DNA of 64,000 nucleotides from a candidate division Kazan bacterium RIFCSPHIGHO2_01_FULL_44_14 (GTDB taxonomy: Bacteria > Patescibacteriota > Kazan-3B-28), in the NCBI GenBank assembly GCA_001771185.1, contig METB01000001.1, forward strand, positions 439,200 through 503,199, written 5' to 3'. The position numbers and the translations under genes were made by a program. The stretch's first letter is position 1; each line of letters begins with the position of its first letter. This document shows positions 36,345 to 54,014 of this stretch, one piece after another. The notes below the pieces were generated by a model, which was not told where the DNA came from, did no database searches, and worked only from the letters and a program-made list of their open reading frames with translations.

Positions 36345-36347
36345 AGT

Positions 36348-38171: not shown

Positions 38172-39271
38172 AGTTTTGCTGTCCTTACTTTGCAAAAGAA
38201 AACTCTTTCAGTATGACCGTTGATATCGCTCTTGCCCGTGGTAAAAGCACGATAAGTTTTTTCGAATGTCTTGACCTCGCCTTTTGCTTTTAAGATCCTT
38301 ACTATATCGTTGTCGCTAATTCTTGCATTGGATCTATCGTTCTTTGATTCTCCTGTGTTGTTGTAGGATAGCAATATATATTTACAGTTGGCATTTTGTA
38401 TTAAATCCTCCAATGCCTCAGTTGCTCCCCTTAAGCAGTATTCACTTTTGATATGGGATCGATCCATCTTTTTGGCAATGCCAGATACAGTTGGCTTACC
38501 CCAATCGACGAGATTCTCTAAAAGGTGGTAGGCATCTGAATACTGCCGTGAATTATAGGGTGGGTCGATATATAGCACATCGCATTTTATCTTCCTCACA
38601 AGAGCGTTGGCATCTTCTTTGTAAATCCTATTGTTGTGGTTAGATTCCCAGTCAATCTCGGGTAGCAACAGAGTGACAGGTTTCTGCTTGTCTATATCTG
38701 GACTCTTTCGATAAGCATCGTAGTGACCCACTGTATTTGCTATTTTATCTACCGCATACAAGAGAGAGCATAGCAGAATACTTTTTTCCTGTTCGGATTT
38801 TGATATTTCATCAATGGCACTACGGATCATCCCTATTTTTCTTGCGTTAGTAATTGAAAAGTAGCTATTTCCAAAATGCATTGAAAAGTAGTTATCCTCG
38901 TTCGTTTGCAAGGAATTAAGGTAGTCGATCTTATGTGTAATGGATTTTCTGTAATCGCCGTCCGTCATAAGGAAAGTCTTGAGACATACTATGCTACTGG
39001 ATAGTATGTCATTTGCGATTATCTCTGTCTGACCATCATTGAACTTTGCTCCCACCACTCCTGTACCAGCGAATATATCGCAGAATGTCTTGTATCCTTT
39101 GCATTCTTTTCCAACAATCTCCTCGATGAAAGATAGAAGCCTGTATTTACTACCCAAGTATCGTCTATTTTGGATACTAAATGTTTGGACAATAGATGGA
39201 CTGTCTACCAACACCCTAACACTGTTAGTTGATTGAGTTGGGCTAATTGTTATGGGTGAGATCCTGTTCAT
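38168..39271 (-). CDS. Dam-like (D12-class, alpha-group) N6-adenine DNA methyltransferase
   Basis: RYLGSKYRLL and DIFAGTG (motif I) precede LYIDPPYN (motif IV). Confidence 0.8.
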   Translation of the reverse strand: MNRISPITISPTQSTNSVRVLVDSPSIVQTFSIQNRRYLGSKYRLLSFIEEIVGKECKGYKTFCDIFAGTGVVGAKFNDGQTEIIANDILSSSIVCLKTFLMTDGDYRKSITHKIDYLNSLQTNEDNYFSMHFGNSYFSITNARKIGMIRSAIDEISKSEQEKSILLCSLLYAVDKIANTVGHYDAYRKSPDIDKQKPVTLLLPEIDWESNHNNRIYKEDANALVRKIKCDVLYIDPPYNSRQYSDAYHLLENLVDWGKPTVSGIAKKMDRSHIKSEYCLRGATEALEDLIQNANCKYILLSYNNTGESKNDRSNARISDNDIVRILKAKGEVKTFEKTYRAFTTGKSDINGHTERVFFCKVRTAKL

Positions 39272-39275
39272 AAAA

Positions 39276-39461
39276 TTACCTCGCACAGGCTTTGTCTAAA
39301 AACTTTTGGAATGTTTTGTGGTCAATTCTGAACTCTTTCCCCAGTTTATAAGCCTTCAATCTCCCAGCCTTTATGTAGCGGTAGATCGTCATTATATTTA
39401 CCTGCAGTTTGTCAGCTAACTCTTGGGCGGTGTAAAAATCCTTGTTTTTCATAGTCTCCAT
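39276..39461 (-). CDS. Excisionase-family/MerR-like HTH DNA-binding protein (candidate RDF or RM controller)
   Basis: YTAQELADKLQVNIMTIYRYIKAGRLKAYK matches the HTH_17/excisionase family. 61 aa. Confidence 0.55.
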   Translation of the reverse strand: METMKNKDFYTAQELADKLQVNIMTIYRYIKAGRLKAYKLGKEFRIDHKTFQKFLDKACAR

Positions 39462-39486
39462 ACTTACTACTATACTTTACAATGCT

Positions 39487-40605
39487 TTACATATCAACTT
39501 CGTGTTTATAGGGCTTGAATTCATCAATCTGGGTAATGATTTGTTTAACCCAATCGTGATATTGGGTAGGGCTTCGGTTGAGAGTTCTTAGCCCTTTTGC
39601 CAATCTCATCCAAGTGCGGTCGCTGGATTTGGGAGATAGGGCTTGTCTCAGTTTGCGGATACCCGCTTCATCTTGGGCTAAAGTCTTGAGTCCTGTGAGG
39701 TATATGGCTTGTTTCGGTTTGATCTTGGGTTCACTGGCTAAAATATCCTGTAAAATTTGGTGTGGGCTGGTGTGGGTATCAAAAATAAATAGGTTGTGTT
39801 CGGCTACGAACTCCCTCCAGTAATGTTCGATAACTGTCTTGGCGGTCTTGTTTTGAATGACATCTCGGAGGGTGGGGTTAATTGGAAACCCTAACTTACC
39901 AAATAGGGAGTTGAGTTTCTGTTTCTTGGACAGCCTTACTTCCATTCTCAAAATCTCAAGGTGGCTATCAGATAGCGGTTCGAAGAGGGAGCGTTGAACA
40001 TAGTTTTGATGTTTATCGGTTGCTCTTTTGTCGGGTTTTGTCAGGTCTTGGATTTTGTCATAAAAGACGAGGGAGTGGGAGGCTGTGTAATACTGCAGAG
40101 CTTCACCATTAGTAAATTTCATTGGGGTCAGATCCAGTCGCTTGGGGACATTGACCTTGGCTAAATCCTTGAGAACACTGCTACAGGTGTATGGGTATGG
40201 AAGCTCTAGGTTCTTGGAGTAGTGGACTGCCGACACTTTGGCGTTGATTAGGAGTTCACTCAATACGCCAACCCCGATTTCTCTTAACTCGGTAGCCAGT
40301 TTTTTGATTAGCTCTGGAAACTCAACTTCAGCTGTCTCGTCTAAGTTGTTGCCATATAGCAGTTTAGGGATTGAAAACTCGATTTTAAGTGGCTGTTCGG
40401 TCTGTCCGTTTTTTGTCATCCTTTTCATCAGGGTAAGTCGGGGTCGATAATGCTTTGTTCGCTTGTCTTGAGCTGTGGGGTTGTTCACATACTTAATCAA
40501 GTAGTTGCCAGGCTGTTTAAGGGCTTCAGCGTTAGGCTGAAACCGCTCGGGTTTCAAGATGAGGTATTTGCCTTGTGGGATTTGTAGGATTACGGTGTCA
40601 ATCAT
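39487..40605 (-). CDS. Hypothetical protein (mobile-element cargo; possible replication/initiator-like)
   Basis: 372-aa ORF with no secure motif. Confidence 0.45.
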   Translation of the reverse strand: MIDTVILQIPQGKYLILKPERFQPNAEALKQPGNYLIKYVNNPTAQDKRTKHYRPRLTLMKRMTKNGQTEQPLKIEFSIPKLLYGNNLDETAEVEFPELIKKLATELREIGVGVLSELLINAKVSAVHYSKNLELPYPYTCSSVLKDLAKVNVPKRLDLTPMKFTNGEALQYYTASHSLVFYDKIQDLTKPDKRATDKHQNYVQRSLFEPLSDSHLEILRMEVRLSKKQKLNSLFGKLGFPINPTLRDVIQNKTAKTVIEHYWREFVAEHNLFIFDTHTSPHQILQDILASEPKIKPKQAIYLTGLKTLAQDEAGIRKLRQALSPKSSDRTWMRLAKGLRTLNRSPTQYHDWVKQIITQIDEFKPYKHEVDM

Positions 40606-40821
40606 TGTTTTGGTTTTTTATATCGGTTGGGGTTATTTCTGCGGTCGATCTTAAGTAGAAGCTCCATAAAACCAACCAGGTTTTGCCAGTCCTCTCTGGG
40701 CAAATGGCTGAGCGGTTTTTTCTTGGGTTGAATTGTGGGTAAGTTGTTGGACATAAAAATAACCCCTATCTTGAGGTTATAAAATGTCGTGTTTGCAGAA
40801 CTCTGCGGATTAGTCTGCAGA

Positions 40822-41991
40822 CTATTTCAGGTACTTTTTGTTGAGCTGGAGCGTAGTTTTTTTCATAATCACAAAATCCCTAATCCTTGTCTGCTTGGCT
40901 ATTTCTTCATTAAGATCGTAGGTGGCGTTGTACATCTTCTTCCAGTGTTTGCGGGGGTTATATTCAATGTTTTTCCCGAAGAGCTTTTCCCAAATCTCAT
41001 CCACAGCCCATACCTTGGCTGGAGCCTTAAAGATGGCTTTGAGTAGATAGTGAGGGTTGCTGTTGTGGGTCTTGGATATAGTGATTTTGTTGGTTTGAAA
41101 GGTCAATTGACTGGTCTTGGAGTCGAATGACGCTGGTTGCGATATGGAGGTTCGTGCTGGTGTTTTATACTTAGCATCGATCTCTGCCATCGCCTTATCG
41201 AGCAGGGTTAATCTAATTTTAAAGACATCAGTGTCATCGTCTTCGGGTGGTACATCCATATCTATGACCCACACAGCTTCTATGTCTAAGTAGCCCAGTT
41301 TCTCGAGGGCGATTAGAGTGTGTAGGGGAAGTGTTTTATCAAACCAGGTTCTGATCTCAGAACTCATCCAGTTATTGTTCTTGGTCTGATAATACTGACC
41401 CCTTAAAACAAAGGTATCCCCAAACTGTAATTGGAGTACTCGCAGGGTATCTAACATTGACTCTTTCTGCTTCTCGAACTTATACCAATTGATCGAGTCA
41501 ATTTGTAGCTTATCGTTGATAAAACCGTTGAGGTAAATATCCAAGAGGGTATCCAGTCGTTTTTTGTTATTGGGTTTAAGCTGAACTGGGAACTCAAACC
41601 ATTCTCCAAGCCCGAATTTTTTGAACAATATGGCTGAGTCGGCAAACTGTTTGAAGGTAAAGTTGTTGTCTAAGAAGGGGGCAATCCCTTTTGCCATTTT
41701 TTCAGCTTTGCCCTCTTGGTGATTTTTCAGAGTTTCCGCTCCGATCTTACTATATTGAGCATACAAATCTGTGTGAAAAATCATTCCATCAATTTCAATA
41801 CCCCACAAGTCGAATTGTAGAGCGACTCTAAAGGCACAGTTATCGATGCTGTCTTGGGTGGGAGATAGCATATCCTCAAACCGCATCAGGCTTCGAGGCA
41901 CTAAGCGTTCGGCGTTAGCATATTTCCACAGGGCGTATAACCCTGCCTCTGAGATATGGGGTATGGGGAGTTTGTTTGTTTGCTTGTTCAT
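40822..41991 (-). CDS. Hypothetical protein (mobile-element cargo)
   Basis: 389-aa ORF with no recognisable motif. Confidence 0.45.
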   Translation of the reverse strand: MNKQTNKLPIPHISEAGLYALWKYANAERLVPRSLMRFEDMLSPTQDSIDNCAFRVALQFDLWGIEIDGMIFHTDLYAQYSKIGAETLKNHQEGKAEKMAKGIAPFLDNNFTFKQFADSAILFKKFGLGEWFEFPVQLKPNNKKRLDTLLDIYLNGFINDKLQIDSINWYKFEKQKESMLDTLRVLQLQFGDTFVLRGQYYQTKNNNWMSSEIRTWFDKTLPLHTLIALEKLGYLDIEAVWVIDMDVPPEDDDTDVFKIRLTLLDKAMAEIDAKYKTPARTSISQPASFDSKTSQLTFQTNKITISKTHNSNPHYLLKAIFKAPAKVWAVDEIWEKLFGKNIEYNPRKHWKKMYNATYDLNEEIAKQTRIRDFVIMKKTTLQLNKKYLK

Positions 41992-42048
41992 CTCTTTACT
42001 TTAGTTTACAATAACCAGTAAACATATACTCATAATGCAACCATTTAT

Positions 42049-42816
42049 ATGACGGTCTGTATTGGAGCTTTGGCTGAGAATGGGCAAAAGCTGGTACTTG
42101 TATCGGATAAGATGATTACTGCTAACATCCCGATTGCTTATCAGTTCCAGAAGCCAGATGTGCAAAAAATTTATCCGATTAACAATAATGCCCAAGTGCT
42201 GACTGCTGGGAATGCTTTATATGCTCACGAGATTGTCCGTATGGCAGTAAAACGGGTTGCGAAAGAGCGTCTCGAGGGTAAAGATGCTCATAGCGTTGAA
42301 GAGATTACGGAGATAATAAGATCTATCTACCAGGCGTTTAGATTGCAAAAGGTGGTTCAGCTTGTCTTGGAGCCAAGGGGGTTATCATTGGATGCCTACT
42401 ATAGTAATCAACAAAGGTTGCACCAAGGAATGGTGGGCGAAATAGAGCAAAACTTAGTGAACTACAATATAGGAGTAGAGTTAATAGTCGCTGGTATTAA
42501 CCCTGGGGACGGATGTCATCTGTACAGTATTACCCATCCTGGCGTATCCGCCTGTCACGACACGATAGGATATGCCTGTGTAGGTAGTGGAGCTCCCCAC
42601 GCTCTCTATTCTTTAATAGCCTCTGAATATACTAAAGACAAATTGGTTGGGCAGGTTGAAGCGTATGTAGATGATGCTAAGAAAAAGAGTGAGGTTGCCC
42701 CTGGAGTTGGGACGGAAACCGAAAAGATCATACTTCCACCTGCTACAATAGAAGCGGTTCCAGAAGTAATGCATACAGCGGTGCCAGTATTAGATAATCC
42801 ACAGCCACCAGTATGA
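42049..42816 (+). CDS. Proteasome-like N-terminal-nucleophile hydrolase (HslV/Anbu-like), putative
   Basis: Thr directly after the initiator Met (MTVCIGALAENG), a Lys about 30 residues in, and a GSG motif (ACVGSGAPHA). 255 aa. Confidence 0.4.
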   Translation: MTVCIGALAENGQKLVLVSDKMITANIPIAYQFQKPDVQKIYPINNNAQVLTAGNALYAHEIVRMAVKRVAKERLEGKDAHSVEEITEIIRSIYQAFRLQKVVQLVLEPRGLSLDAYYSNQQRLHQGMVGEIEQNLVNYNIGVELIVAGINPGDGCHLYSITHPGVSACHDTIGYACVGSGAPHALYSLIASEYTKDKLVGQVEAYVDDAKKKSEVAPGVGTETEKIILPPATIEAVPEVMHTAVPVLDNPQPPV

Positions 42817-43046
42817 ACGAGGATTTTGAACAGAGTAAAGCGAATGTTGTCAGCATTTCGGTAGCCCAACATCAAGCGTATATGCGTTGGGGTCTTCAGT
42901 CTCTCGTCTTTGAGGGGCTTAAAGACGAAGGGTTTATCCGACAGACCGATGGGAAGATGTTGGCAAAGAAGCTGGTTTCCTCCGATCAGGATGAGATTAC
43001 AGACTTGCCCAATTTTCAGCCCCATTTACTGCAAGTCCCGTCTTAA
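42813..43046 (+). CDS. Small hypothetical protein translationally coupled (ATGA) to the proteasome-like gene
   Basis: 77-aa ORF with a 4-nt overlap. Confidence 0.35.
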   Translation: MNEDFEQSKANVVSISVAQHQAYMRWGLQSLVFEGLKDEGFIRQTDGKMLAKKLVSSDQDEITDLPNFQPHLLQVPS

Positions 43047-43108
43047 GGATTTGTAAGTCTGCTCTAATTTGTTTCCAATCAAGAGTTCTAAGTTTGTCCA
43101 CGAGGGGG

Positions 43109-43143
43109 AGCCAAATGAAAACGAGTAAAGTGACCGAGGTGCC
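43109..43143 (+). repeat. 35-bp direct repeat R1 (candidate attL), containing a truncated 13-codon copy of the small ORF at 63742-63840
   Basis: AGCCAAATGAAAACGAGTaAAgTGACCGAGGTGCC compared with 63736-63770 AGCCAAATGAAAACGAGTcAAaTGACCGAGGTGCC, 33 of 35 identical. Confidence 0.7.
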
Positions 43144-43194: not shown

Positions 43195-43225
43195 AAATAA
43201 CCCCTTCGCAGGGGTTGTTTTTATG
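43195..43225 (+). terminator. Rho-independent terminator
   Basis: aaccccttcgcaggggtt followed by gtttttat. Confidence 0.6.
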
Positions 43226-43232
43226 GTAAGCT

Positions 43233-43385
43233 ATGGGTGTTGTTCCACAATCTTGAAAGTTTGGATATCCAATTTTCCTAGGGATATAGGGATGTTAGTA
43301 CCGATAATCGCGGTTAAAAACGGGCAGATGCTCGAGTGCCGCGATTATCTACTCCTAGGAGCAAGAGATTGTGGAACAACCACCA
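43233..43385. repeat. Nested inverted-repeat structure (outer ~19-bp arms gtgttgttccacaatcttg / caagagattgtggaacaac; inner 11-bp arms gataatcgcgg / ccgcgattatc)
   Basis: The arms are directly visible. It lies just inside the candidate element boundary and upstream of gene 43447. Confidence 0.6.
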
Positions 43386-43446
43386 CGAGGTCTGCCCCTT
43401 TTTGATTTATATAATAATCGGCAGGTCATCGGGTAGGGAATCCACG

Positions 43447-44517
43447 ATGGCTATTATTGTTTCTAAATCAGGAAAGAACGCTCAAAAAGTTGAGCGATCC
43501 AGAATCGAACAAGAGGATTATCTCCAACAATATACACTGGATAATCCGGAGGTGATTCCACTTTACGATATCAAAGAAGATATCAGGTTACTAATTCTCG
43601 CTCGAGAGTTTTCCACTAATAGCGGTCCCATTGATGCCATTGGTATCGATAAGGATGGCGAGATTTATATTGTAGAAACTAAGCTCTATAAGAATCCGGA
43701 CAAACGAACAGTCGTTGCCCAAGCTCTCGACTATGGAGCGGCCCTTTGGCGACACTCCAATGATTTTGATTACTTTATCGATACTTTGAATCAGAGTGTC
43801 CAGAAGGTGTTCGGAATGACTCTCAACGACAAGATTGAAGCTTTCTTCGGTTTATCACAAGAGGAGATAGCTGGACTACTTGAGGGGGTCAAAAAGAACC
43901 TAGCCGATGGAGTGATGCACTTCGTCGTTCTGATGGATTCTCTAGATGATCGGCTGAAAGACTTAGTTCTATATGTTAATCAGAACAGTCAGTTTGATAT
44001 CTACATTGTTGAATTGGACTACTACAAGCACGAAGAGTATGAGATTATCATTCCCAAGATTTACGGGGCGGAGGTTAAAAAAGATGCCGCCATCCAGAAA
44101 AGTAGTGGGTCTAGGCAACAGTGGTCTGAGGAAGAGTATCTATCTAGCGCTAAAGCTACCATAGACGGCAAGGTCTATCCGGCATTCAGTAAATTATATG
44201 AAGCTTGTAAGACCTCAGCCGATGGGATGCGATTTGGCACTGGCACGGTCAGAGGTTCAGTCGGTCCATTCTATAACTCTATCTCTCGGCGAACTATTTT
44301 TACTCTTTATACCGACGGCAAGTTAGCTTTCAATTTTGGCTGGTTGAATGAGCCCACTTCAGCGATTGAGTTTAGAGATAGATACTTCAACGCGCTGAAG
44401 TCCTTGGGGCTGAAATTGGAAGAGAGCGATATTTTGGTCTATCCGCATTTTCCGATCAATCAGTGGTCGCCTTTGGTAGAGAAAATCATCCAAGTGGTTA
44501 AGGAGACTGCGGTATGA
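43447..44517 (+). CDS. PD-(D/E)xK (restriction-endonuclease-fold) nuclease-like protein with a C-terminal domain of unknown function
   Basis: IDAIGIDKDGEIYIVETKLYK gives a D...ExK arrangement of NucS/Shedu/Mrr type. 356 aa. Confidence 0.5.
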   Translation: MAIIVSKSGKNAQKVERSRIEQEDYLQQYTLDNPEVIPLYDIKEDIRLLILAREFSTNSGPIDAIGIDKDGEIYIVETKLYKNPDKRTVVAQALDYGAALWRHSNDFDYFIDTLNQSVQKVFGMTLNDKIEAFFGLSQEEIAGLLEGVKKNLADGVMHFVVLMDSLDDRLKDLVLYVNQNSQFDIYIVELDYYKHEEYEIIIPKIYGAEVKKDAAIQKSSGSRQQWSEEEYLSSAKATIDGKVYPAFSKLYEACKTSADGMRFGTGTVRGSVGPFYNSISRRTIFTLYTDGKLAFNFGWLNEPTSAIEFRDRYFNALKSLGLKLEESDILVYPHFPINQWSPLVEKIIQVVKETAV

Positions 44518-45230
44518 AGAAAATCAAATCCGTCGAGCAATATGGTCAGTTATATATGAAACGATTTCTCCAGGACCAAATTGCTCACAAGGATGCTATT
44601 TATGATGACTGGCGAGAGGCCTTGGAGTTCTTGTTTTCCAAGGTCTTTTATCGGGGTAGGCGAGATGAGTTGTCAGAGAGATTTATGTGGGCAACTCTTA
44701 AAACTCTAAAAGAAATTGAGTTAGATCCGGACTATAACAAGCAATTACTTGATAATCGCCTACAATCCAATGGGGTGAACAATCACAAGGATCGCAAGAT
44801 GGTCTGCGAAGTTCTGGATTTCGTCTTTAATCTTCCCACTCCTTACGGTCGCAATATCGTTAAATACACCATTGAGCGGATTAAAAATGGGAAGATTCTA
44901 GACATCTTTAATGAACTGAATACGATTTATGCCATCGGAGACAAGCTATCCTCGTTCTATATCCGAGATGTGGCGTTGGTATTTGATTTAGAGGATAAGC
45001 TACTAGCAGATGACTTCAAATATTGTCAGCCTATCGATACATGGGTGAAACAAGTAGCGGTTAAGCTGGACCTTATTGCTCCCCAAGAAGGGGATGTGGC
45101 AACAATCAAGTCAGCCATTATAGATGCGTGTCGAGGGGCAAATGTATCACCCCTACTTTTTAACGCAGGGGCATGGATGGTCGGAGCTAAATCCTTCGAT
45201 TTGTTGATAGAGCGGTTTTCTACACAATAA
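44514..45230 (+). CDS. Hypothetical protein, possible helix-hairpin-helix DNA-binding module (LNTIYAIGDKLSSFYIRDVAL)
   Basis: ATGA overlap with the upstream nuclease-like gene. 238 aa. Confidence 0.4.
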   Translation: MKKIKSVEQYGQLYMKRFLQDQIAHKDAIYDDWREALEFLFSKVFYRGRRDELSERFMWATLKTLKEIELDPDYNKQLLDNRLQSNGVNNHKDRKMVCEVLDFVFNLPTPYGRNIVKYTIERIKNGKILDIFNELNTIYAIGDKLSSFYIRDVALVFDLEDKLLADDFKYCQPIDTWVKQVAVKLDLIAPQEGDVATIKSAIIDACRGANVSPLLFNAGAWMVGAKSFDLLIERFSTQ

Positions 45231-45258: not shown

Positions 45259-46638
45259 CTAGCGGGCTGAAGTGGGTTCATCGATAAGCTTGGTTAGGGT
45301 AGTTTTCTTATTGTCTTGTAGTGTCAGTTTGCCTTGGTTCAATATTACTTGGCTTTGGATGTTTGCTAGTATCTCTCGCTTTTGTTCATTACTACCTTCC
45401 CGGAGAATGTACTTGGCATACATTTTCAGGTCCACTCTTGGCATTTTGGAGGTGGCGGAATCTATCCCCAGCACTCCCTGCGTGAATTTATTGTAGCGGT
45501 CTATCTCTTCCTGCAACCTATCCTTCATCCCGATTCGATCTAGAGTCAGTTTATCGATAATCTCCACAAATTGTTCAATGAGGTCTGCCTCTCTGACATA
45601 AGGTTGTTTGCACCCGATTCTCTTGCTATCTGTGCAGTGATAGTAGACATGGCGATTCATCTCACCATTCTTTAATCGCTTGAATTTTTCTTCAGCACTG
45701 ACTCCGGCCCCGCACTGACCGCAGGTCATCATCCTTGTAAAGGCGAAGCACTTTTCACCATGACGGCCATGTGGGGGTTTAGAAATTCTAACTTGCACCT
45801 CATCAAATAACTCTTTGTTAATTAGTGGTTCGTGTTTGCCTTGGTAGCTTCCTTCGCCATAGGTATATTCGCCATAGTAGAAGCTATTCTTGAGAGTCAG
45901 AAAGATTGAACTTAGTGCCATCTTCTTGCCGCTTCGAGTCGTGAAGTTAGTTTCGCTATTAAGCCAATCTAAGATGTTCCTGCCGGAGTAGCCATGTTTG
46001 GCCACCTTATTGAAGATCTCTTTAATGGTGGGAGCTCTTTCTTTGTCGACCAAGATCGTGTTGTCGGCATAGTTGTTGAGATAGCCGAGTGGGGCGACTC
46101 CTGGTCGCCAGCCCATCTCACATTTGGTTCGCATCCCTCGTTTAACATTCACGCCCTTGTTATCGTTTTCCAATTTGGCTTGGGAACAGAGAATCATTAA
46201 GAGGAACTTCTCGTTAGGGGAGTTCCGGAATATCTGACCATGGGTTCTGATTTCGTGCAGAAGTCCTTGGTCCATAAGGTCGACCAAAGAGCCAAGGTCT
46301 CCGGCATTACGGCTCAATCGGTCTGGAGCCCATGTCATAATTCCATTGAAATCGCCTTCTCGGATTCTCATCAGAAGCTCAGTAAAGGCGGGTCTTTGGC
46401 CGGAGTCCTTAGCCGAGTGGCTTTCCTTGATAGTCTCTACTATCTCTATCCCATCCCTCTCAGCCATCGCCAACATCTCTTTGATTTGGCTGTCTATGGA
46501 GAGGGCTTGTCGTTCGTCCTGCTCTGAGGACTTACGGGCATAGAGACAGTACTTGGCTCCCTGTGGTTGCTCCATGGCTTCCGAAGACCCCTCGGGAGCT
46601 CCTGGAATCGTCTCGTTTTTCACCATATTTGCCTCCAT
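45259..46638 (-). CDS. Large serine recombinase (second copy, distinct sequence)
   Basis: The resolvase catalytic region CLYARKSSEQDE...DSQ, recombinase domain, and zinc ribbon (CGQCGAGVS...YYHCTD). The N-terminal start is uncertain (MEAN... or MEQP...). Confidence 0.8.
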   Translation of the reverse strand: MEANMVKNETIPGAPEGSSEAMEQPQGAKYCLYARKSSEQDERQALSIDSQIKEMLAMAERDGIEIVETIKESHSAKDSGQRPAFTELLMRIREGDFNGIMTWAPDRLSRNAGDLGSLVDLMDQGLLHEIRTHGQIFRNSPNEKFLLMILCSQAKLENDNKGVNVKRGMRTKCEMGWRPGVAPLGYLNNYADNTILVDKERAPTIKEIFNKVAKHGYSGRNILDWLNSETNFTTRSGKKMALSSIFLTLKNSFYYGEYTYGEGSYQGKHEPLINKELFDEVQVRISKPPHGRHGEKCFAFTRMMTCGQCGAGVSAEEKFKRLKNGEMNRHVYYHCTDSKRIGCKQPYVREADLIEQFVEIIDKLTLDRIGMKDRLQEEIDRYNKFTQGVLGIDSATSKMPRVDLKMYAKYILREGSNEQKREILANIQSQVILNQGKLTLQDNKKTTLTKLIDEPTSAR

Positions 46639-46742: not shown

Positions 46743-48980
46743 ATGGAGCTAGCAGACAACGAAAAGCGGGATATTATCAAGTACTTGGAGGCAGGGAAAC
46801 CCCTGCCAGACAAGTACCGCTTTTTGCTATTCGGGGATAAAAATGAGGTAGAGTTGGTCTGGAATGGTAAAACCGACGAGGTTACTAATGTGGCTCTGCC
46901 TTTTCAGGTTATAGAACAGGTGGACGAGGCTAGGAGTGAAAAAGAGGTAAAAATCCAGACGGGTCTATTTGATGAGGGTGGCCGTCAGATTGGAGGTTGG
47001 GTCAATAAGCTGATTTGGGGCGACAATAAGCTCATTCTTTCCAGCTTGAAGAATGGTCCCATCAGGGAAGAGATAGCGAGACAAGGTGGGATAAAACTGA
47101 TTTACATAGATCCGCCATTTGATGTCGGTGCTGATTTTTCTATGGATATTGAGATAGGTGATGAGCAATTTACCAAACAGCCAGGCGTATTAGAAGAACT
47201 GGCGTACAGAGATACATGGGGTAAGGGTGCTGATAGTTTTATCTCTATGATTTATGAGCGTCTAAAGTTGATGAGAGACTTATTGGCCGATGATGGCAGT
47301 ATATATGTGCATTGTGATGACAGATTGAGTGGGTATTTACGACTAGTAATGGATGAAGTTTTTGGAAAAAATAATTTTAGAAATCATATTATCTGGAAAC
47401 GCACCTCTTCACATAATGATTCTAAAAAGATTGGCAAGGTGTCAGATTCAATTTTTTACTACTCCAAGAGTGAAAATGCTATATGGAATCCACAATTTAG
47501 GCCTTACGATCAAACTTATCTTGATAACTTCTATCGGCATATCGAAAGCGACGGTCGTAAGTATCGTCTGCACCAAATAGAACGTAATCCAGCACTAGGT
47601 CTTCGTGAAAATCTAAAGTATGAATACAACAACTACACACCTCGGTATGGCTGGATGGTGGAGAGAGGGAAGCTTGAGGAACTTGATAAAAAGGGTATGC
47701 TGGTTTGGTCAAAAAACGGTAAACCCCAAAGGAAAATCTATATAGGCGAGGACACTGAAGGACAGCCGATTCATGATATTTGGGATGATATATCAGCAGT
47801 TGGTAGCCAGAGTAAAGAGAAGACTGATTATCCAACACAAAAACCAGAGTCATTGCTTGCAAGGGTTATTAGAACCTCTACTAATGAAGGTGACATCGTT
47901 GCCGACTTTTTTGTGGGTTCTGGTACTACTTTGTCCGTTGCCGAAAAATTGGGACGTAAATGGATTGGTAGTGATTTGGGAAAATTCTCCATTCATACTG
48001 CTCGCAAAAGAATGATTGGTGTTCAGCGGGAACTTAAAAAAGAGAATAAGGGTTATCGAGCGTTTGAGATTCTTAATCTTGGTAAATATGAGAGGCAATA
48101 TTATGTGGGAGCCAATCCCGATTTAAGAGATGAAGAAAAACAAAGACAGCTTGACCAAAAAGAGCAAGATTTCGAGAAGCTTATATTGGGCGCCTACAAG
48201 GCAGAGCCGGTGGACGGCTTCAAAACATTCAGAGGGAAGAAGGCCAGCCGATTGGTATCCATTGGGGCCATTAACTTACCGGTTACTCGTAGGTTTGTGG
48301 AAGAAGTCGTAGAAGAATGTCTCGAGAAGAAAATCACCAAGGTAGATATTTTAGCCTTTGAGTTTGAGATGGGTCTATTTCCCAAAATGCAGGAAGAGGC
48401 CAAGGACAAAGGTATTGATATGGCTCTTAAATATATTCCTCGAGATGTGTTTGACAAAAGAGCTATCGACAAAAATCAAGTTGTCTTCCATGATGTTTCC
48501 TTTATCGAGGTCAGGCCTATTATCAAGGGTAAAAGTGTGGCAATCGAGCTAACTGATTTCTCGGTTTTCTATAATCAGGATTCTGTCGCCCAGGTTGAAT
48601 CTCTACTCAAGAATGGTAACAATAAGATTGTGGTTGAAAATGGTCAGATTATTAAAGTGCTAAAAGACAAGGATGGCATAGTCACTCAGGAGGTACTAAC
48701 TAAGAAGTGGTCTGATTGGATCGACTACTGGTCTGTAGATTTCAATTTCGAGAGCAAGCAAGAGATTATCCGTATCCAGAAAGATGGTAAAACTGAGGAG
48801 GTTTGGACGGGAGATTATATATTTGAAAACGAATGGCAATCTTTCAGGACCAAAAAGGACCGTAAGCTGGATTTTGTAAGTGTTGCGACTGAAATGACAA
48901 AAGGTCGACATAAGGTTGCTATAAAAGTGGTCGATATCTTTGGCAATGACACTATGAAAGTTATGGAGGTAAATATCTAA
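46743..48980 (+). CDS. Type III restriction-modification methyltransferase (Mod-like, beta-class N6_N4 MTase) with a long C-terminal extension
   Basis: Motif IV IYIDPPFD comes ~265 aa before motif I FFVGSGTT, with a TRD-like region between. 745 aa. Confidence 0.8.
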   Translation: MELADNEKRDIIKYLEAGKPLPDKYRFLLFGDKNEVELVWNGKTDEVTNVALPFQVIEQVDEARSEKEVKIQTGLFDEGGRQIGGWVNKLIWGDNKLILSSLKNGPIREEIARQGGIKLIYIDPPFDVGADFSMDIEIGDEQFTKQPGVLEELAYRDTWGKGADSFISMIYERLKLMRDLLADDGSIYVHCDDRLSGYLRLVMDEVFGKNNFRNHIIWKRTSSHNDSKKIGKVSDSIFYYSKSENAIWNPQFRPYDQTYLDNFYRHIESDGRKYRLHQIERNPALGLRENLKYEYNNYTPRYGWMVERGKLEELDKKGMLVWSKNGKPQRKIYIGEDTEGQPIHDIWDDISAVGSQSKEKTDYPTQKPESLLARVIRTSTNEGDIVADFFVGSGTTLSVAEKLGRKWIGSDLGKFSIHTARKRMIGVQRELKKENKGYRAFEILNLGKYERQYYVGANPDLRDEEKQRQLDQKEQDFEKLILGAYKAEPVDGFKTFRGKKASRLVSIGAINLPVTRRFVEEVVEECLEKKITKVDILAFEFEMGLFPKMQEEAKDKGIDMALKYIPRDVFDKRAIDKNQVVFHDVSFIEVRPIIKGKSVAIELTDFSVFYNQDSVAQVESLLKNGNNKIVVENGQIIKVLKDKDGIVTQEVLTKKWSDWIDYWSVDFNFESKQEIIRIQKDGKTEEVWTGDYIFENEWQSFRTKKDRKLDFVSVATEMTKGRHKVAIKVVDIFGNDTMKVMEVNI

Positions 48981-49594
48981 TGACTGACTATGCTATCAAT
49001 TTGGAAGAGACTCTATCTATCAAAGATAGTTGGGGATATGAAACTGAAGTAGATGCAGTTATTTATCGCAACCAATTTGATAAATATTATCAGGCATACT
49101 CAAAGTCTGGTTTGCAGGAAGACCTAATGTTTAGTTTTATATTCCTTCAGATTTATATAGAGTGTTTTTTGCATGGCTGTATGAGGAAAATTGTTGAAAT
49201 GGAATTCAAGCCGCCTCGTATAAATGTGTACAAAGATTGGACTGGAGGAGAAAAGCGTTCGGTTCAAGACAAATTAGATGCCTTTGTGGGACTCTTTTTT
49301 AGTCTCATAACTGACAAGATCAACGATGATAAAGATGAAATTAAGAGACTCTTCGGTAGCATTAGCTATATCCGCAACCTACTAGTTCATGGCCACAAAG
49401 TTGCAATGTGGTCGAATTCTGATGGCTACTCTGGTATCAGTGAGGCTAAAGCATTCTTAACCTCAGATCAGTTGGGCAACACAGTCAAGGAGGCAAATAA
49501 ACTTGGGGCATTGTGGAATCAGTTATTGGACACAATTTTGCCACAACTCAAAGCATTACAAAGAGTGAGTGATTTTAAGTATAAAGAAATATAA
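48980..49594 (+). CDS. HEPN-like protein (Rx4H motif SYIRNLLVHGH) inserted between mod and res
   Basis: TAATG overlap with the mod stop, and 6 nt before the res start. It is all-alpha by composition. The HEPN assignment rests only on the Rx4-6H motif. Confidence 0.4.
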   Translation: MTDYAINLEETLSIKDSWGYETEVDAVIYRNQFDKYYQAYSKSGLQEDLMFSFIFLQIYIECFLHGCMRKIVEMEFKPPRINVYKDWTGGEKRSVQDKLDAFVGLFFSLITDKINDDKDEIKRLFGSISYIRNLLVHGHKVAMWSNSDGYSGISEAKAFLTSDQLGNTVKEANKLGALWNQLLDTILPQLKALQRVSDFKYKEI

Positions 49595-49600: not shown

Positions 49601-52291
49601 ATGGCATTACATCCTAATTTCCCAAAATCTCCCCATGCTATCTTGAACCCAGATTTACGCTGGTTTCCGGCAGATGAAGCATTGAGAGAGAAAGATTACA
49701 GCAAATTGTTGCCACCACTTGTGGCAAAGCTTCGTAAGGAAGTGGCAATTTGGCGTGACAAGAACTACGAGGGGGCCACGGATACCAGTAAGGGCTTATT
49801 GCAGTGGTGGTTCAAGACGGATCACCCCATGGATGATAGCAATGGCAGAACATACTTATTTGAATATTATTTCGCCCAGCGAGAAGCGGTAGAGACTGTT
49901 ATTTATCTCTATGAAATCGCTGGCGTTAAACAACCTTTAGATCTTCTGAAGTACGATAGCTCGGGAGCCATCTCTACTGGGATGTTCGATGAATCTTGGT
50001 TGAGATTTGTCATTAAGATGGCTACAGGTAGTGGCAAGACGAAGGTCTTAAGTTTGATATTGGCTTGGAGCTATTTCCATAAGATGTATGAAGAATACTC
50101 TCATTTGGCGAGAAACTTCCTAGTGATTACCCCGAACATTATTGTATTGGATCGTATCCGGTCTGATTTTGATGGACTCAAGATTTTCTTTCAAGATCCA
50201 GTTGTGCCAGATAACGGGTTTGAGGGTAAGAACTGGCGAGATGATTTTCAGCTAACACTTCATATTCAGGACGAGATTGGGGTAGTCAATAAAACGGGAA
50301 ACATTTTTCTTACCAATATCCATCGGGTCTATGAAGGTAATGTGACTGAACCGACTTTTAAAGATGAAGACACTACTAACTATTTTCTAGGTAAAAAGCC
50401 TACTGGGGCGACCAATGAATCAAAAGTGGATCTTGGTCAGATTGTGCGTGATGTAGATGAGCTGGTAATCCTGAATGATGAAGCCCATCATATTCACGAC
50501 CCGAGAATGGCCTGGTTTAAGTCCATCGAAGACATCCATAATCGGCTGAAGATGAAGGGGGTGTCGTTATCGCTTCAGCTAGATGTGACAGCCACTCCCA
50601 AACACGATAATGGTTCTATTTTTGTACAAACAGTTAGTGATTATCCGCTGGTCGAAGCCATCCATCAGGATGTGGTGAAGCATCCGGTTCTGCCGGATTC
50701 GGCTAGTCGAGCCAAGCTTCAGGAGCAAAAAAGCTCTATCTTCACCGAAAAGTATAAAGACTATATCCATCTGGGCTTTCTGGAATGGAAAAAGGTATAT
50801 GAGCAACACAAGAAACTCGGCAAGAAAGCTGTTCTGTTTGTAATGACTGATGACACTAAAAATTGCGATGAAGTGGCTGAGTATTTACATAAAACCTATC
50901 CCGAGTTTAGTAATCAAGATTCAGTACTGGTCATTCACACCAAGAATAATGGTGAAATCTCCGAGAGCGTAACTGGCAAAAATGAAGAAGAGCTTAAAGA
51001 GCTTCGTCTAGCGGCCAATAGTATCGATTCATTTGATAGCCCACACAAGGCAATTATTTCTGTGCTGATGTTGAAAGAGGGTTGGGATGTAAAGAATGTA
51101 ACGACTATTGTTGGACTTCGAGCCTATTCTGCCAAAAGCAATATCTTGCCCGAGCAAACACTAGGCAGAGGTCTGCGACGAATGTATAGGGCGGAGAATA
51201 TTACTGAGATGGTGAGCGTGGTGGGTACCGATGCGTTTATGGACTTTGTTGAGTCTATTAAAAGCGAGGGTGTGGAATTGGAACGTCGCAAGATGGGTGA
51301 GGGTACTGAACCTAATGCTCCGTTAGTCATTGAGGTTGATAACGAAAATACCAAGAAGGATATCGCTAAACTGGACATTGAGATTCCTGTTCTGACTCCT
51401 CGGATCTATCGGGAATACAAAAACCTGTCGGATTTGAATTTGGCAGGTCTTCAGTACAAGAAAATCGAGCTTAAACAATTCTCTAAAGAGGAACAGCGAG
51501 AGATTGTTTTTAGGGACATAGCTACCGGAAATATTACCCATACCACCAAGTTTGATACGGAGTTTACGCCGAATTATCAGAGTGTTATTGGCTACTTTAC
51601 GCAAGTGATTATGAAGGAACTTCGGCTGGTTAGCGGTTATGATGTTTTGTATGGCAAGGTAAAAGAATTTATTCAAAGTAGTCTCTTTACCAAGTCGGTA
51701 GATTTGGAAGACCTTAACATACTGCGTAACTTGTCAGAACTAGAAGTGACCAAGACTATAGTTGAGACTTTCAAAAAAGCTATCAACGCTCTGACAGTTC
51801 TGGATAAAGGGGAGGCCGAAATCAGGGACTACATTAAGGTCAGTAAGAGTCGGCCGTTTGTCACCAGAGAGCAGGGTTATCTTTTGCCCAAGAAAAGTGT
51901 CTTTAACAAAATTGTCGGAGACAGTCATCTTGAGCTAGAGTTTGCCAGTTTTCTAGAAGAAGCCGAGGATGTAGTTTCTTATATCAAGAATTATTTTTCT
52001 GTCTACTTCCGAATTGACTATCAAAACAGTAGTGGTGATATCTCTAACTTTTATCCCGACTTCATCGTTAAGTTGTCTGAGAAAGAGGTCTATATTGTCG
52101 AGACTAAAGGTAGGGAAGACCTGGACGACATTGAGAAAATAAACCGACTTCGACAGTGGTGTCAGGATATCAACGAAGTACAAAAGAAGGCCACCTACAA
52201 AATGCTATATGTGAAGCAAGAGGATTGGGATAAGTTAGACCATAAACCAGGGTCTTTTGCCGAGGCTGTCCGACTTTTTGAAGATAAATAA
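49601..52291 (+). CDS. Type III restriction enzyme Res subunit (SF2 helicase plus C-terminal PD-(D/E)xK nuclease)
   Basis: Walker A ATGSGKTKV, DEAH box LNDEAHHI, C-terminal PDFIV...YIVETKG. Confidence 0.85.
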   Translation: MALHPNFPKSPHAILNPDLRWFPADEALREKDYSKLLPPLVAKLRKEVAIWRDKNYEGATDTSKGLLQWWFKTDHPMDDSNGRTYLFEYYFAQREAVETVIYLYEIAGVKQPLDLLKYDSSGAISTGMFDESWLRFVIKMATGSGKTKVLSLILAWSYFHKMYEEYSHLARNFLVITPNIIVLDRIRSDFDGLKIFFQDPVVPDNGFEGKNWRDDFQLTLHIQDEIGVVNKTGNIFLTNIHRVYEGNVTEPTFKDEDTTNYFLGKKPTGATNESKVDLGQIVRDVDELVILNDEAHHIHDPRMAWFKSIEDIHNRLKMKGVSLSLQLDVTATPKHDNGSIFVQTVSDYPLVEAIHQDVVKHPVLPDSASRAKLQEQKSSIFTEKYKDYIHLGFLEWKKVYEQHKKLGKKAVLFVMTDDTKNCDEVAEYLHKTYPEFSNQDSVLVIHTKNNGEISESVTGKNEEELKELRLAANSIDSFDSPHKAIISVLMLKEGWDVKNVTTIVGLRAYSAKSNILPEQTLGRGLRRMYRAENITEMVSVVGTDAFMDFVESIKSEGVELERRKMGEGTEPNAPLVIEVDNENTKKDIAKLDIEIPVLTPRIYREYKNLSDLNLAGLQYKKIELKQFSKEEQREIVFRDIATGNITHTTKFDTEFTPNYQSVIGYFTQVIMKELRLVSGYDVLYGKVKEFIQSSLFTKSVDLEDLNILRNLSELEVTKTIVETFKKAINALTVLDKGEAEIRDYIKVSKSRPFVTREQGYLLPKKSVFNKIVGDSHLELEFASFLEEAEDVVSYIKNYFSVYFRIDYQNSSGDISNFYPDFIVKLSEKEVYIVETKGREDLDDIEKINRLRQWCQDINEVQKKATYKMLYVKQEDWDKLDHKPGSFAEAVRLFEDK

Positions 52292-52298
52292 ATGGAAT

Positions 52299-54014
52299 AT
52301 GTCATTTCTACCAAAAATCTTTAATGCATTATCTCGGCATACCAACAAGGGGGTTGCGGTTGCTACGGTGGTTGGGGATACGAATAGTATCGAAGTCACT
52401 CCAGAATACAATAAGGTATTAGATTTAATTGAGGGTGGAGCTCCTATCACACTAGTTAGTGGTGCTGGTGGAACTGGCAAATCGACACTTATCAAATTTC
52501 TGGAAAAGACCCTGCGTCGTAAGATAGTGAAATTGGCACCAACGGGGGTGGCCGCGATTAACGTTGGCGGACAAACACTTCATTCATTTTTTCAGCTTCC
52601 GCACCAAATTCTCACCAAAGACCATGTGAAGCGGATATATCAGAAGAAACTGTATCAGCAGATTGGGTTGCTGGTTATTGACGAGGTTTCTATGGTGCGA
52701 CCAGATGTTTTGGATGCCATAGATCACTTTTTGCGGATCAATGGTCCTGACGGAGCAAGACCATTCGGAGGGGTTCAGCTATTGCTGATAGGGGATCATT
52801 TTCAGCTTCCTCCTGTGACCCCGACATCAGAGGATGCCGTTCTTAGGCAAATGGGATACAACTTTGAGCGGCACTACTGGTTTCATGCTAAGTGTGTTCA
52901 AGATCTTCCGATTGAATATGTTGAGTTAACTCATATCTATCGGCAAACCGATGCCCATTTTATTAACCTCTTAAGTAAGATTCGGGTTGGTAATGATTTG
53001 GCCAATGTGATTAAGGAAATCAATGAGAAATGTTTTGATACCGAATATCAATCGGATTTATGTACTACAGTTACGGCGACCAATAGGGTGGCTGATTTTA
53101 TTAACCAAGCTAAGTTTGACGCCCTGCCGGGGCAGGTTTATAAATTTGAGGGTTATATCGATGGCAAGTTTGCCGCCGAGAAGGAAAAACTACCCTCTCC
53201 ATCGGAGCTGTTTTTGAAAAAAGGAACTCGGGTGATGTTCACTAAGAACGATTCAAGGAAGAGGTGGGTTAACGGAAGTACAGGTATTGTCGAGGAGGTC
53301 GACGAGAAAGAAATCAGAGTAAAAATGCTAAACTCTAGTTTGGTTTATTCGGTAGAGAAAGCCAAGTGGCAAAATCTGAAATATGTTTACAACCAAAAGA
53401 CGGAGAAGTTAGATACGGAGATTGTTGGGGAATATGTACAATATCCGCTGAAATGGGGATGGGCTATTACTATTCATAAAGCTCAGGGCAAAACTCTAGA
53501 CGAGATTATTATCGACCTAGGTAATGGAGGGGCGTTTGAGACAGGTCAGGTCTATGTGGCTTTGAGCCGTTGCCGGACATTGGAGAATATTCATCTTAGA
53601 CGACCTCTGAATCTTAGTGATGTAAAGTGGTGTCCGATTATCAAGGAGTTTGACGATTATCTGTCTGGTCGTATGGAGAAACTAGTGTCTATTGGTGAAG
53701 GTGAGCTTCCAGAGGACACTGACGACTTAGCGAAGGCGCTGGAGAAGAGGAGAGCACTAAGTGGCGAACTACATCAGGTAATAGCCAAGATTGGTAAAGC
53801 CATATCTAGCTCAGGTATCGATATAGCGGGTCTCCCGGGGAATGAGAGTAGGGATAAATCCTACGAGCCGTGGGATGAGACAGAAGACGATATGTTGCGT
53901 CTTCGTTTTCAAGAAGGAATACCAATAAAAGATATTGCCAAGCTTCATGCGCGGACTATTGGAGCCATACGCTCCAGATTAGACAAATTGGGGGTTACGG
54001 TGGAAGTCGGGTAA
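52299..54014 (+). CDS. Pif1/RecD-family SF1 helicase with a C-terminal sigma-70-region-4-like HTH
   Basis: Walker A SGAGGTGKST, Walker B LLVIDEVSM, and a C-terminal segment (YVALSRCRTLENIHL) typical of Pif1-like helicases. C-terminal HTH LRLRFQEGIPIKDIAKLHARTIGAIRSRL. Confidence 0.7.
   Translation: MSFLPKIFNALSRHTNKGVAVATVVGDTNSIEVTPEYNKVLDLIEGGAPITLVSGAGGTGKSTLIKFLEKTLRRKIVKLAPTGVAAINVGGQTLHSFFQLPHQILTKDHVKRIYQKKLYQQIGLLVIDEVSMVRPDVLDAIDHFLRINGPDGARPFGGVQLLLIGDHFQLPPVTPTSEDAVLRQMGYNFERHYWFHAKCVQDLPIEYVELTHIYRQTDAHFINLLSKIRVGNDLANVIKEINEKCFDTEYQSDLCTTVTATNRVADFINQAKFDALPGQVYKFEGYIDGKFAAEKEKLPSPSELFLKKGTRVMFTKNDSRKRWVNGSTGIVEEVDEKEIRVKMLNSSLVYSVEKAKWQNLKYVYNQKTEKLDTEIVGEYVQYPLKWGWAITIHKAQGKTLDEIIIDLGNGGAFETGQVYVALSRCRTLENIHLRRPLNLSDVKWCPIIKEFDDYLSGRMEKLVSIGEGELPEDTDDLAKALEKRRALSGELHQVIAKIGKAISSSGIDIAGLPGNESRDKSYEPWDETEDDMLRLRFQEGIPIKDIAKLHARTIGAIRSRLDKLGVTVEVG

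Follow-up and report, generated by a model that had tools for sequence, protein, structure and literature searches.

Introduction

MdgA, which joins a NucS-type nuclease domain to DUF4268, is reported as a modification-dependent anti-phage nuclease: it protects against phage T4 on its own, breaks down the glucosyl-hydroxymethylcytosine (glucosyl-HMC) DNA of T4 far better than unmodified T4-GT7 DNA, and is inactive as the E77A mutant (bioRxiv 10.1101/2025.02.28.640651). Helix-hairpin-helix (HhH) glycosylases with a Lys/Asp/Trp site, the Dags, defend against 7-deazaguanine phages (bioRxiv 10.1101/2025.10.29.685425). END nucleases are fusions of a phospholipase D (PLD) nuclease with an inactive EndoIII/Ogg1-like sensor (PMC12191111). 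Here, we compare these systems with two overlapping genes, G1 and G2, of the candidate division Kazan bacterium RIFCSPHIGHO2_01_FULL_44_14. They lie in a stretch of 64,000 nucleotides of contig METB01000001.1 (positions 439,200 to 503,199, forward strand), hereafter the window:

43447-44517, + strand: G1, open reading frame (ORF) of 356 aa, predicted NucS-type nuclease
44514-45230, + strand: G2, ORF of 238 aa, DNA glycosylase of the HhH-GPD fold, predicted to be bifunctional

The reading that we favour, with a probability of roughly 0.55, is that G1 and G2 encode DNA-targeting enzymes that are independent of each other and stacked as cargo at the tRNA-proximal end of an integrated element of ~20.6 kb (E2). 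An initial annotation of this DNA had proposed a two-gene cassette and had described two ORFs joined by an ATGA overlap. The gene structure is borne out: the stop of G1 overlaps the start of G2 in ATGA, an arrangement kept in three further loci (L001, L052 and L132), and the two genes are co-transcribed in this lineage. The ATG at 43447 as the start of G1 agrees with the N-termini of the homologues, which begin MAII(I/V)SK; a longer ORF from the GTG at 43336 finds no support from these N-termini. The G2 protein is 100% identical to a database entry labelled hypothetical protein from a candidate division Kazan bacterium, which places the window in a genome of the candidate phyla radiation (Patescibacteria). 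A 16-nt inverted repeat around G2 (44348-63/45266-81) was set aside, being at about chance level for 24 kb by a rough estimate.

Co-occurrence of G1 and G2

The notion of a two-gene cassette did not survive the comparison of loci that carry either gene. Among 89 G1 loci, 23 have a flank of at least 6 kb on both sides and are referred to as well flanked. G2 is present in none of these 23 and in four of all 89, namely the window, L001, L052 and L132, where G1 is at least 87% identical; two loci with G1 at 85-86% identity (L053 and L133) are without G2. Conversely, G1 is found in a single one of 51 genome loci with G2 relatives (L001, G2 80% identical), and it is missing from L002 and L003, whose G2 homologues are 78% and 62% identical. 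No G1-like proteins were detected among the neighbours of the other G2 homologues with local hidden Markov models for the nuclease domains of G1 and PDC-S11.

The space between G1 and the neighbouring large serine recombinase holds G2 in the window, L001 and L052, G2 together with a 203-aa ORF in L132, the 203-aa ORF alone in L133, and small ORFs in L053. Because its content differs among loci, this space is a variable cargo slot. G1 and G2 are not a conserved two-gene defence system, and their pairing is specific to one lineage. For genome scans, this means that neither translational coupling nor adjacency to a recombinase was a sign of a functional pair here; it was the co-occurrence analysis that overturned the two-gene reading.

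The neighbourhoods of the remaining G2 relatives are mixed. Some of them belong to type I restriction-modification operons: in L006 (L006:7077-11447), the G2 homologue stands between HsdR and a PDDEXK_1/Cas4-like nuclease and is translationally coupled, in L007 the relative lies upstream of HsdR/HsdM, and in L013 it lies beside RadC and an N6-methyltransferase. The relative in L003 adjoins a serine recombinase, and others are found among the housekeeping genes PGK, TIM, GAPDH, SRP54 and NusG. In L010 (L010:8035-9605), a 275-aa protein (phrog_31197) follows the G2 homologue with an overlap; its motif VDIWGIDDKGQVV locally resembles the catalytic strand of G1, but over its whole length, this protein is not significantly similar to G1 (probability 0.5%).

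These arrangements bear on a true two-component restriction system, in which the glycosylase would excise a modified base of incoming DNA and the nuclease would turn apurinic/apyrimidinic (AP) sites or nicks into double-strand breaks. The ATGA coupling, kept in all four loci that hold both genes, could mean joint function; in L006 and L010, a G2 homologue is overlapped by a nuclease downstream or by a protein with a locally similar motif, and END nucleases offer a working precedent for joining a nuclease to an HhH sensor (PMC12191111). Nevertheless, we regard such a system as quite improbable. Co-occurrence is confined to a single shallow lineage, a G2 homologue with 78% identity lives without G1 (L002) and G1 with 85% identity without G2 (L053 and L133), the L010 partner shows no significant overall similarity to G1, and both parent families act as single genes in the literature (10.1101/2025.02.28.640651, 10.1101/2025.10.29.685425). 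A modular variant, in which G2-family glycosylases would cooperate with interchangeable PD-(D/E)xK partners (G1, the Cas4-like nuclease of L006, possibly the 275-aa protein of L010) to excise, then cut, is likewise given little credence. If true, such modular restriction of modified DNA would be a split-gene counterpart of END nucleases.

G1, a NucS-Type Nuclease

The D...ExK motif of the restriction-endonuclease fold, which had been noticed in G1 at the outset, is confirmed by profile, structure and conservation. The motif IDAIGIDKDGEIYIVETK (residues 62-79) is part of a NucS-type PD-(D/E)xK site consisting of E23, D63, E77-x-K79 and Q92xxxY96 (the RecB-like QxxxY), and E23, D63, E77, K79 and Q92/Y96 are invariant in an alignment of 52 G1 homologues. 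Residues 8-235 match the PADLOC model PDC-S11 (PDLC04916, E = 4e-20). The AlphaFold model of G1 (predicted local distance difference test, pLDDT, 80.6) has its best Foldseek matches in the PDB with the NucS structures 2vld and 5gke (probability 0.99), and the G1 family profile aligns with Pyrococcus abyssi NucS along the catalytic strands; sequence searches of the PDB were marginal. Judged from sequence and model together, the site is far beyond chance and a genuine NucS-type PD-(D/E)xK site. Since the catalytic residues are invariant in the 52 homologues, G1 is expected to be an active nuclease.

The layout of G1 comprises an N-terminal nuclease domain, a middle region with helical and beta elements, and a C-terminal domain of residues ~225-356, which may be DUF4268-like. 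NucS, Mrr and Shedu carry their nuclease domain at the C-terminus (Pfam NucS_C, Mrr_cat and DUF4263). The initial annotation had likened the N-terminal placement in G1 to these proteins, but the order is reversed and corresponds to the layout of PDC-S11/MdgA. The two-domain layout of full-length NucS/EndoMS is absent from G1, and NCBIfam NucS matches with a score of 24.6 against a cut-off of 216 (E = 1.2e-5), the matched part being the NucS_C-like residues 17-83; Pfam NucS_C scores 16.8 against a threshold of 24. For Shedu, no model was among the PADLOC matches of G1 at E <= 0.1, and there was no Pfam DUF4263 match. The expectation of a defence nuclease thus holds insofar as the PDC-S11 family is listed as a defence candidate; membership in Shedu or NucS did not hold.

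The relation to MdgA is supported by distant relatives. On plasmids of Klebsiella, Enterobacter and E. coli, far relatives of G1 are labelled "DUF4268 domain-containing protein"; on the Klebsiella plasmid examined, the gene adjoins SIR2/ATPase and HEPN-MNT genes, and the Klebsiella/E. coli DUF4268 protein P0237 is PDC-S11 of PADLOC over its full length (E = 5e-169). The family profiles of G1 and DUF4268 align in hhalign with a probability of 95.5% (E = 1.5e-8, 267 columns), collinearly over G1 residues 19-317 and including the DUF4268-region stretch (G1 226-317 against 237-325), with the alignment score coming mostly from the N-terminus; against the Klebsiella DUF4268 protein, the probability is 96.5%. 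Moreover, the mutagenic primer used for MdgA encodes VIV(E>A)NKLDD, which stands in the same register as YIVETKLYK of G1 (10.1101/2025.02.28.640651). We infer that G1 represents a divergent clade of NucS+DUF4268 (PDC-S11/MdgA) nucleases from candidate-phyla-radiation bacteria.

The G1 family counts over 1,800 proteins, none of them annotated and nearly all encoded by Patescibacteria. Phage-replication homologues had been named beforehand as a finding that would speak against a defence function. No homologue of G1 was found in PHROGs or in the deposited phages (tblastn against 50,697 phage records), and a fold search of the viral database BFVD gave a single informative match, Bacillus phage G gp54.

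G2, a Glycosylase of the HhH-GPD Fold

The HhH-like segment reported for G2 is real (IYAIGDKLSSFYIRD, residues 138-152), and the predicted structure (pLDDT 95.5; predicted template modelling score, pTM, 0.92) indicates that the entire protein, beyond this segment alone, has the HhH-GPD fold. The best 50 PDB entries listed by E-value in Foldseek are all HhH-GPD glycosylases, with probabilities up to 1.00; among those listed are SsOgg, Tm1821, OGG1, an AGOG-like protein, MutY and EndoIII, at template modelling scores (TM-scores) of 0.5-0.6. Across 47 homologues, K144 in the HhH motif IGDKLASFYLRD is invariant and D175 in QPIDTW nearly invariant. The motifs IGDK and QPIDTW are EndoIII/OGG1-like, the residue correspondence being drawn by motif. 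A Lys in the HhH together with P-x-D-T is the pattern of bifunctional glycosylase/lyases (K120/D138 in EndoIII, K249/D268 in OGG1), which suggests that G2 is a bifunctional HhH-GPD glycosylase/AP lyase. The C-x6-C-x2-C-x5-C loop that holds the Fe-S cluster of EndoIII and MutY is absent from G2, whose only Cys residues are C98, C171 and C206.

At the level of families, G2 stands apart. Pfam gave no match for G2 itself, and neither NCBIfam nor PHROGs offered a usable family; among 47 relatives, Pfam Ogg-HhH matched two (best 5e-6) and HhH-GPD two (0.01). A profile search of the PDB returned the Ogg of C. acetobutylicum at E = 0.19. An exhaustive profile search collected 1,180 cluster representatives of the G2 family, 896 of them at E <= 1e-10, and did not draw in canonical EndoIII or Ogg. 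The 47 homologues share the family-specific motifs FYRGRRDE, GVNN and LLFNAGAW, and the family is patchily spread over bacteria and archaea. By these sequence comparisons, it appears as a distinct, moderate-sized HhH-GPD clade.

A plain base-excision-repair enzyme, acting on oxidised, alkylated or methylation-linked damage and carried on mobile DNA with no defence role, is a tentative possibility for G2 that we consider doubtful overall. The fold matches to Ogg, AGOG, EndoIII and MutY, the weak Pfam Ogg-HhH matches of a few relatives (5e-6) and the several relatives located among housekeeping genes would suit such an enzyme; in addition, small candidate-phyla-radiation genomes may gain repair genes horizontally. 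On the other hand, the patchy distribution across bacteria and archaea, a family of only 1,180 representatives, its recurrence in restriction-modification operons (L006, L007 and L013) and beside a serine recombinase (L003), and the position of G2 in the cargo slot of a mobile element argue against a role in repair alone.

Neighbours of G1 and the Element Family

G1 homologues keep recurrent company, and the following proteins are the most relevant:

DNA methyltransferases: 48 of 89 G1 loci (Pfam N6_N4_Mtase in two members from the window; the ParB-methyltransferase fusion of the window assigned by PHROG)
TerL, protein of ~500 aa: 37 of 89 G1 loci (phrog_38, E = 1e-76)
Large serine recombinases: 32 of 89 G1 loci
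TerS-like protein of ~143 aa: 28 of 89 G1 loci

Within 6 kb of G1 in the 23 well-flanked loci, a methyltransferase is found in 19, TerL in 16 and a recombinase in 14. The usual order is serine recombinase(-), TerL(-), TerS(-) and two methyltransferases(-), then G1(+), followed by variable cargo; in another order, G1(+) is convergent with TerL. Restriction-modification genes (type III or type I) are found among the cargo after G1, as are a 350-aa reverse transcriptase, DUF2779 and unknown proteins of ~1,000 aa. In eight loci, G1 is located 100-450 bp downstream of a tRNA, with four tRNAs represented (Asn, Trp, Gln and Glu). The divergence of G1 correlates with that of TerL (Mantel r = 0.55) and of the recombinase (r = 0.63, both p = 5e-4), and with a mean identity of 59%, G1 is the most conserved of the three (recombinase 55%, TerL 45%).

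This association raises the alternative that G1 is a life-cycle gene of the element, such as a recombination directionality factor or a replication/processing or packaging nuclease, with G2 as unrelated cargo. Besides the frequent neighbours and the tracking of TerL and recombinase divergence, the first-gene position after the tRNA/att end in the eight loci and the conserved structured leader upstream of G1 (see below) are consistent with this idea. Nonetheless, we consider it unlikely. Loci seeded with TerL include not only elements with G1 (L157, L159 and the L148 contig) but also methyltransferase-TerS-TerL-recombinase elements that lack G1 despite sufficient flank (L152, L153, L155 and L158), and the wider PDC-S11/DUF4268 family occurs on plasmids and chromosomes without such a backbone, near SIR2/ATPase and HEPN-MNT genes. 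Furthermore, no homologue was found in deposited phages or PHROGs, as noted above, and DUF4268 proteins are equally conserved (55-65% identical among themselves), so that conservation alone is no argument against defence. Because the TerL-seeded loci include elements without G1, it appears to be a frequent passenger of the element family, not an obligatory accessory factor. The possibility raised beforehand, that the genes belong to a conserved recombinase accessory module, is borne out in part for G1, which travels with the recombinase/terminase backbone although some of these elements lack it.

The same neighbourhoods could suggest a type II-like restriction-modification unit, with G1 as its endonuclease and the neighbouring methyltransferases (a pair of ~253 and 427 aa) as partners. 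Of the 23 well-flanked loci, 19 have a methyltransferase within 6 kb, and two methyltransferases on the minus strand recurrently precede G1 on the plus strand, often in divergent transcription. A ParB-methyltransferase fusion beside terminase genes is, on the other hand, a common phage arrangement. The methyltransferase block exists without G1, the ParB-methyltransferase of the window is ~13 kb away from G1, and G1 is much more conserved than usual type II endonucleases. Overall, such a unit is very improbable.

Independently of G1 function, a widespread module of Patescibacteria combines a serine recombinase with TerL, TerS and one or two methyltransferases, of which one is a ParB fusion (L054-L141 and L148-L159; examples are L083:2230-9038, L115 and L127); it was seen beside G1 homologues and close TerL relatives. 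Five of the longer recombinase-terminase loci have a tRNA near the recombinase end. The usual portal position after TerL is taken by the recombinase or G1, with no portal gene there; likewise, no portal was recognised in the window element, and the remaining genes of related loci are not annotated. The module may represent a satellite-like element family.

In six loci (e.g., L073:9641-10693, L098, L121 and L134), a reverse transcriptase of ~350 aa lies at a distance of one or two genes from the G1 homologue; the L073 protein, the only copy scanned, matches Pfam RVT_1 (E = 3.8e-26). A length of ~350 aa is one associated with the reverse transcriptases of retrons or defence systems.

The Locus in the Window

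In the window, the host genes dnaG and rpoD (29.9-33.3 kb) are followed by tRNA-Asn(GUU) and by two integrated elements, E1 and E2, which meet here, with G1 just outside the right end of E1. The features of this region, read from left to right, are the following:

33475-34110, + strand: tRNA-Asn(GUU), exons 33475-33507 and 34070-34110, split in the anticodon loop
~34110-43105: E1, ~9 kb, integrated at the 3' end of tRNA-Asn, without counterpart in L001
43108-43143, unstranded: putative attL of E2, left copy of a 36-nt direct repeat
45259-46638, - strand: large serine recombinase, 459 aa, convergent with G2 (Pfam Resolvase, Recombinase and Zn_ribbon_recom; phrog_95 integrase, E = 4.6e-65)
46743-48980, + strand: type III Mod (Pfam N6_N4_Mtase, E = 1.3e-46)
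48980-49594, + strand: 204-aa unknown ORF, start overlapping the Mod stop
49601-52291, + strand: type III Res (ResIII, RE_endonuc)
52257-54014, + strand: PIF1/Dda-like helicase
54035-55519, + strand: DUF2779/Cas4-like protein, which recurs in other G1 loci (family F11)
55648-55799, + strand: tRNA-Phe(GAA) and tRNA-Arg(UCU), inside E2 between the cargo genes and TerL
55826-57448, - strand: TerL (phrog_38, E = 2e-73)
57435-57887, - strand: TerS (TerS PHROGs)
57845-59170, - strand: ParB-methyltransferase fusion (phrog_498, E = 1.9e-75)
63735-63770, unstranded: putative attR of E2, right copy of the 36-nt direct repeat

The tRNA-Asn gene is interrupted by a group I intron of 562 nt (Rfam Intron_gpI, 81 bits) that carries a 108-aa ORF of HNH type (33544-33870). 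U is the last base of the 5' exon and G that of the intron; ARAGORN calls the tRNA on the joined exons and misses the unjoined gene. Compared with L001, the window has ~9.8 kb extra (33287-43105), corresponding to the intron and E1. Element E1 encodes a 521-aa serine recombinase, whose ORF, with its 3' end at 34003, reaches on the opposite strand into both the tRNA 3' exon and the intron, a replication-protein-like gene (phrog_702), a 389-aa unknown ORF, and an AlwI-type IIS restriction-modification system made up of a 259-aa N6_N4 methyltransferase, a 615-aa RE_AlwI protein (E = 1.8e-88) and a 372-aa D12 methyltransferase. At its right end (42049-43046, + strand), a 255-aa proteasome-subunit-like protein is overlapped by a 77-aa ORF; with matches to Pfam Proteasome (E = 2.9e-9) and an archaeal beta-subunit model (E = 9.6e-10), this gene is an unusual cargo for a mobile element of the candidate phyla radiation.

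A degenerate 3' end of tRNA-Asn is found at about 43096-43112. The left copy of the 36-nt direct repeat opens with the last 6 nt of this displaced 3' end (GAGCCA), the rest of it lying in the downstream flank; the same sequence is contiguous with the intact tRNA-Asn in L001. The two copies are 94% identical and 20,627 bp apart, placing G1 ~300 bp inside the putative left end of E2. The position immediately inside an element boundary, claimed from the start, is thus true for E2; the inverted repeat then cited as an att site is not one (see below), and the 36-nt direct repeat is the better candidate for the ends. Both these ends and the integrase assignment are provisional, because integration by a serine recombinase normally leaves no 36-nt direct repeat and because the recombinase is 95% identical in tRNA-Asn and tRNA-Trp contexts. 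Another repeat, of 25 nt (33475-99/55649-73), was considered as the ends of an element and is merely the common 5' part of two tRNAs (Asn and Phe).

Element E2, at about 20.6 kb, is probably phage-derived or satellite-like. Its left part agrees with the cargo-slot setting first proposed, as a cargo-rich stretch near the element end with the large serine recombinase and a type III restriction-modification system. The E2 gene set is also present on a 17.8-kb IMG/VR contig beside tRNA-Trp. On the L132/L148 contig, Mod and Res show 95-97% protein identity to those of the window and the 204-aa ORF 69%; this ORF could be a third component of the type III system. The tRNA-Phe and tRNA-Arg genes are absent from the otherwise syntenic IMG/VR contig L148. 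The TerL-TerS-ParB-methyltransferase block recurs beside G1 homologues. In the right part of E2, three unknown ORFs remain; two ORFs of 817 and 304 aa (60051-63424, + strand) had no PHROGs or PADLOC match, are the last two ORFs of at least 120 aa before the putative right end, and may be replication or other backbone genes.

A Structured Region Upstream of G1

The six closest loci share a conserved stretch of DNA that runs from about 43196 to the start of G1 and is common to elements beside three different tRNAs. Two features were recognised in it:

43199-43224, + strand: terminator-like hairpin, AACCCCTTCGCAGGGGTT followed by a T-run (terminator scan)
43230-43392, + strand: structured leader or non-coding RNA with stems 43234-53/43366-85, 43276-82/43354-60 and 43303-13/43339-49

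The hairpin is kept in all six loci with a variable loop. The leader, a region of about 165 nt, folds with a minimum free energy of -84.7 kcal/mol (z = -5.9), and 11 pairs are changed on both sides, compared with 6.0 +/- 1.6 in shuffles and 1-4 in slid controls. When the L133 stems are written out by hand from the alignment rows, G-U pairs are possible on the + strand only. RNAalifold also proposes an alternative long helix of GGTTAAAAACGGGCAGATGCTC with GAGGTCTGCCCCTTTTTGATT, with a U-run at the end. No Rfam family matches the leader, which was found only in the six closest loci and is confined to this G1 subfamily.

The region may be an attenuator or cis-regulatory leader or a separate non-coding RNA. 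More specifically, 43200-43450 may serve G1 as 5' untranslated region or may yield a non-coding RNA of its own, with its end at the terminator TCTGCCCCTTTTT. The inverted repeat 43234-53/43366-85 had been taken for an att site; this was rejected because the stems covary and the L133 G-U pairs are strand-specific, and the repeat is instead the outer stem of the covarying structure.

Proposed Functions of G1 and G2

As independent enzymes, G1 and G2 would act on DNA in different ways. The N-terminal PD-(D/E)xK domain of G1 would cut DNA, using K79 and a metal bound by D63/E77, and the middle and C-terminal regions would select the substrate. By analogy with MdgA, this is probably hypermodified foreign DNA, and G1 would cover phages that escape the neighbouring restriction-modification systems. 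G2 would flip out the target base and nick the strand after attack on C1' by K144, with help from D175. G2, an insertion into the variable slot that separates G1 from the recombinase, may target modified phage bases, as Dag-type defence glycosylases do, or damaged bases in repair. A defence role is plausible for each of the two, and for G2 we lean slightly towards it.

Several observations weigh against this interpretation. The ATGA coupling, wherever both genes occur, hints at joint function, and the surroundings of G2 relatives are mixed, some with restriction-modification or mobile genes and others with plain housekeeping genes. A conserved G1 that co-diverges with its neighbours fits a backbone gene better than fast-turnover defence cargo. 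Finally, an MdgA-like specificity of G1 would be an extrapolation, because Pfam DUF4268 does not match G1 at E <= 0.1 and the PDC-S11 model covers only residues 8-235.

If active, G1 would bring candidate-phyla-radiation bacteria, a group with barely studied phage defences, into the range of the NucS+DUF4268 (PDC-S11/MdgA) nucleases, and would be a near-constant passenger of a widespread family of tRNA-linked recombinase/terminase elements. Likewise, G2 appears to define an unannotated HhH-GPD clade of ~1,180 cluster representatives that could be screened as candidate defence glycosylases.

Comparison with Known Systems

The closest counterpart of G1 is PDC-S11/MdgA. Both have an N-terminal NucS-type PD-(D/E)xK domain with the D...E-x-K register, in which E77 of G1 corresponds to E77 of MdgA, and a length of about 350-395 aa; the profiles align collinearly over about 270 columns, the PDC-S11 model matches, and the surroundings are defence-island-like. 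The differences are that G1 shares ~27% identity, in the nuclease domain only, that its C-terminal domain is not recognised as DUF4268 by Pfam, and that its clade is confined to candidate-phyla-radiation bacteria and tied to recombinase/terminase elements. NucS/EndoMS has the same nuclease fold and catalytic motif, whereas G1 is without the N-terminal DNA-binding domain of NucS and carries at its N-terminus the nuclease domain that NucS has at its C-terminus.

For G2, the likeness to Ogg2, AGOG and EndoIII lies in the predicted HhH-GPD fold and the HhH-Lys and P-x-D-T motifs, and a further likeness to Ogg and AGOG in having no Fe-S cluster, while the sequence similarity is marginal and the G2 family has invariant motifs of its own. 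By their published description, Dags resemble G2 as small stand-alone HhH proteins of ~230-240 aa on mobile DNA with a Lys/Asp pair and a Trp near the Asp (K144, D175 and W177 in G2); they differ in coming from Vibrio integron cassettes (10.1101/2025.10.29.685425). END nucleases likewise combine a nuclease with a base-recognising HhH-GPD module in an anti-phage setting. In contrast to them, G1 and G2 are separate genes, not fused, the nuclease is of the PD-(D/E)xK and not the PLD type, G2 retains the catalytic Lys and Asp, and the pairing is not conserved. Taken together, both proteins are divergent additions to known enzyme types, and what is unusual about this locus is its context: the element family, the structured leader and the intron-bearing tRNA-Asn.

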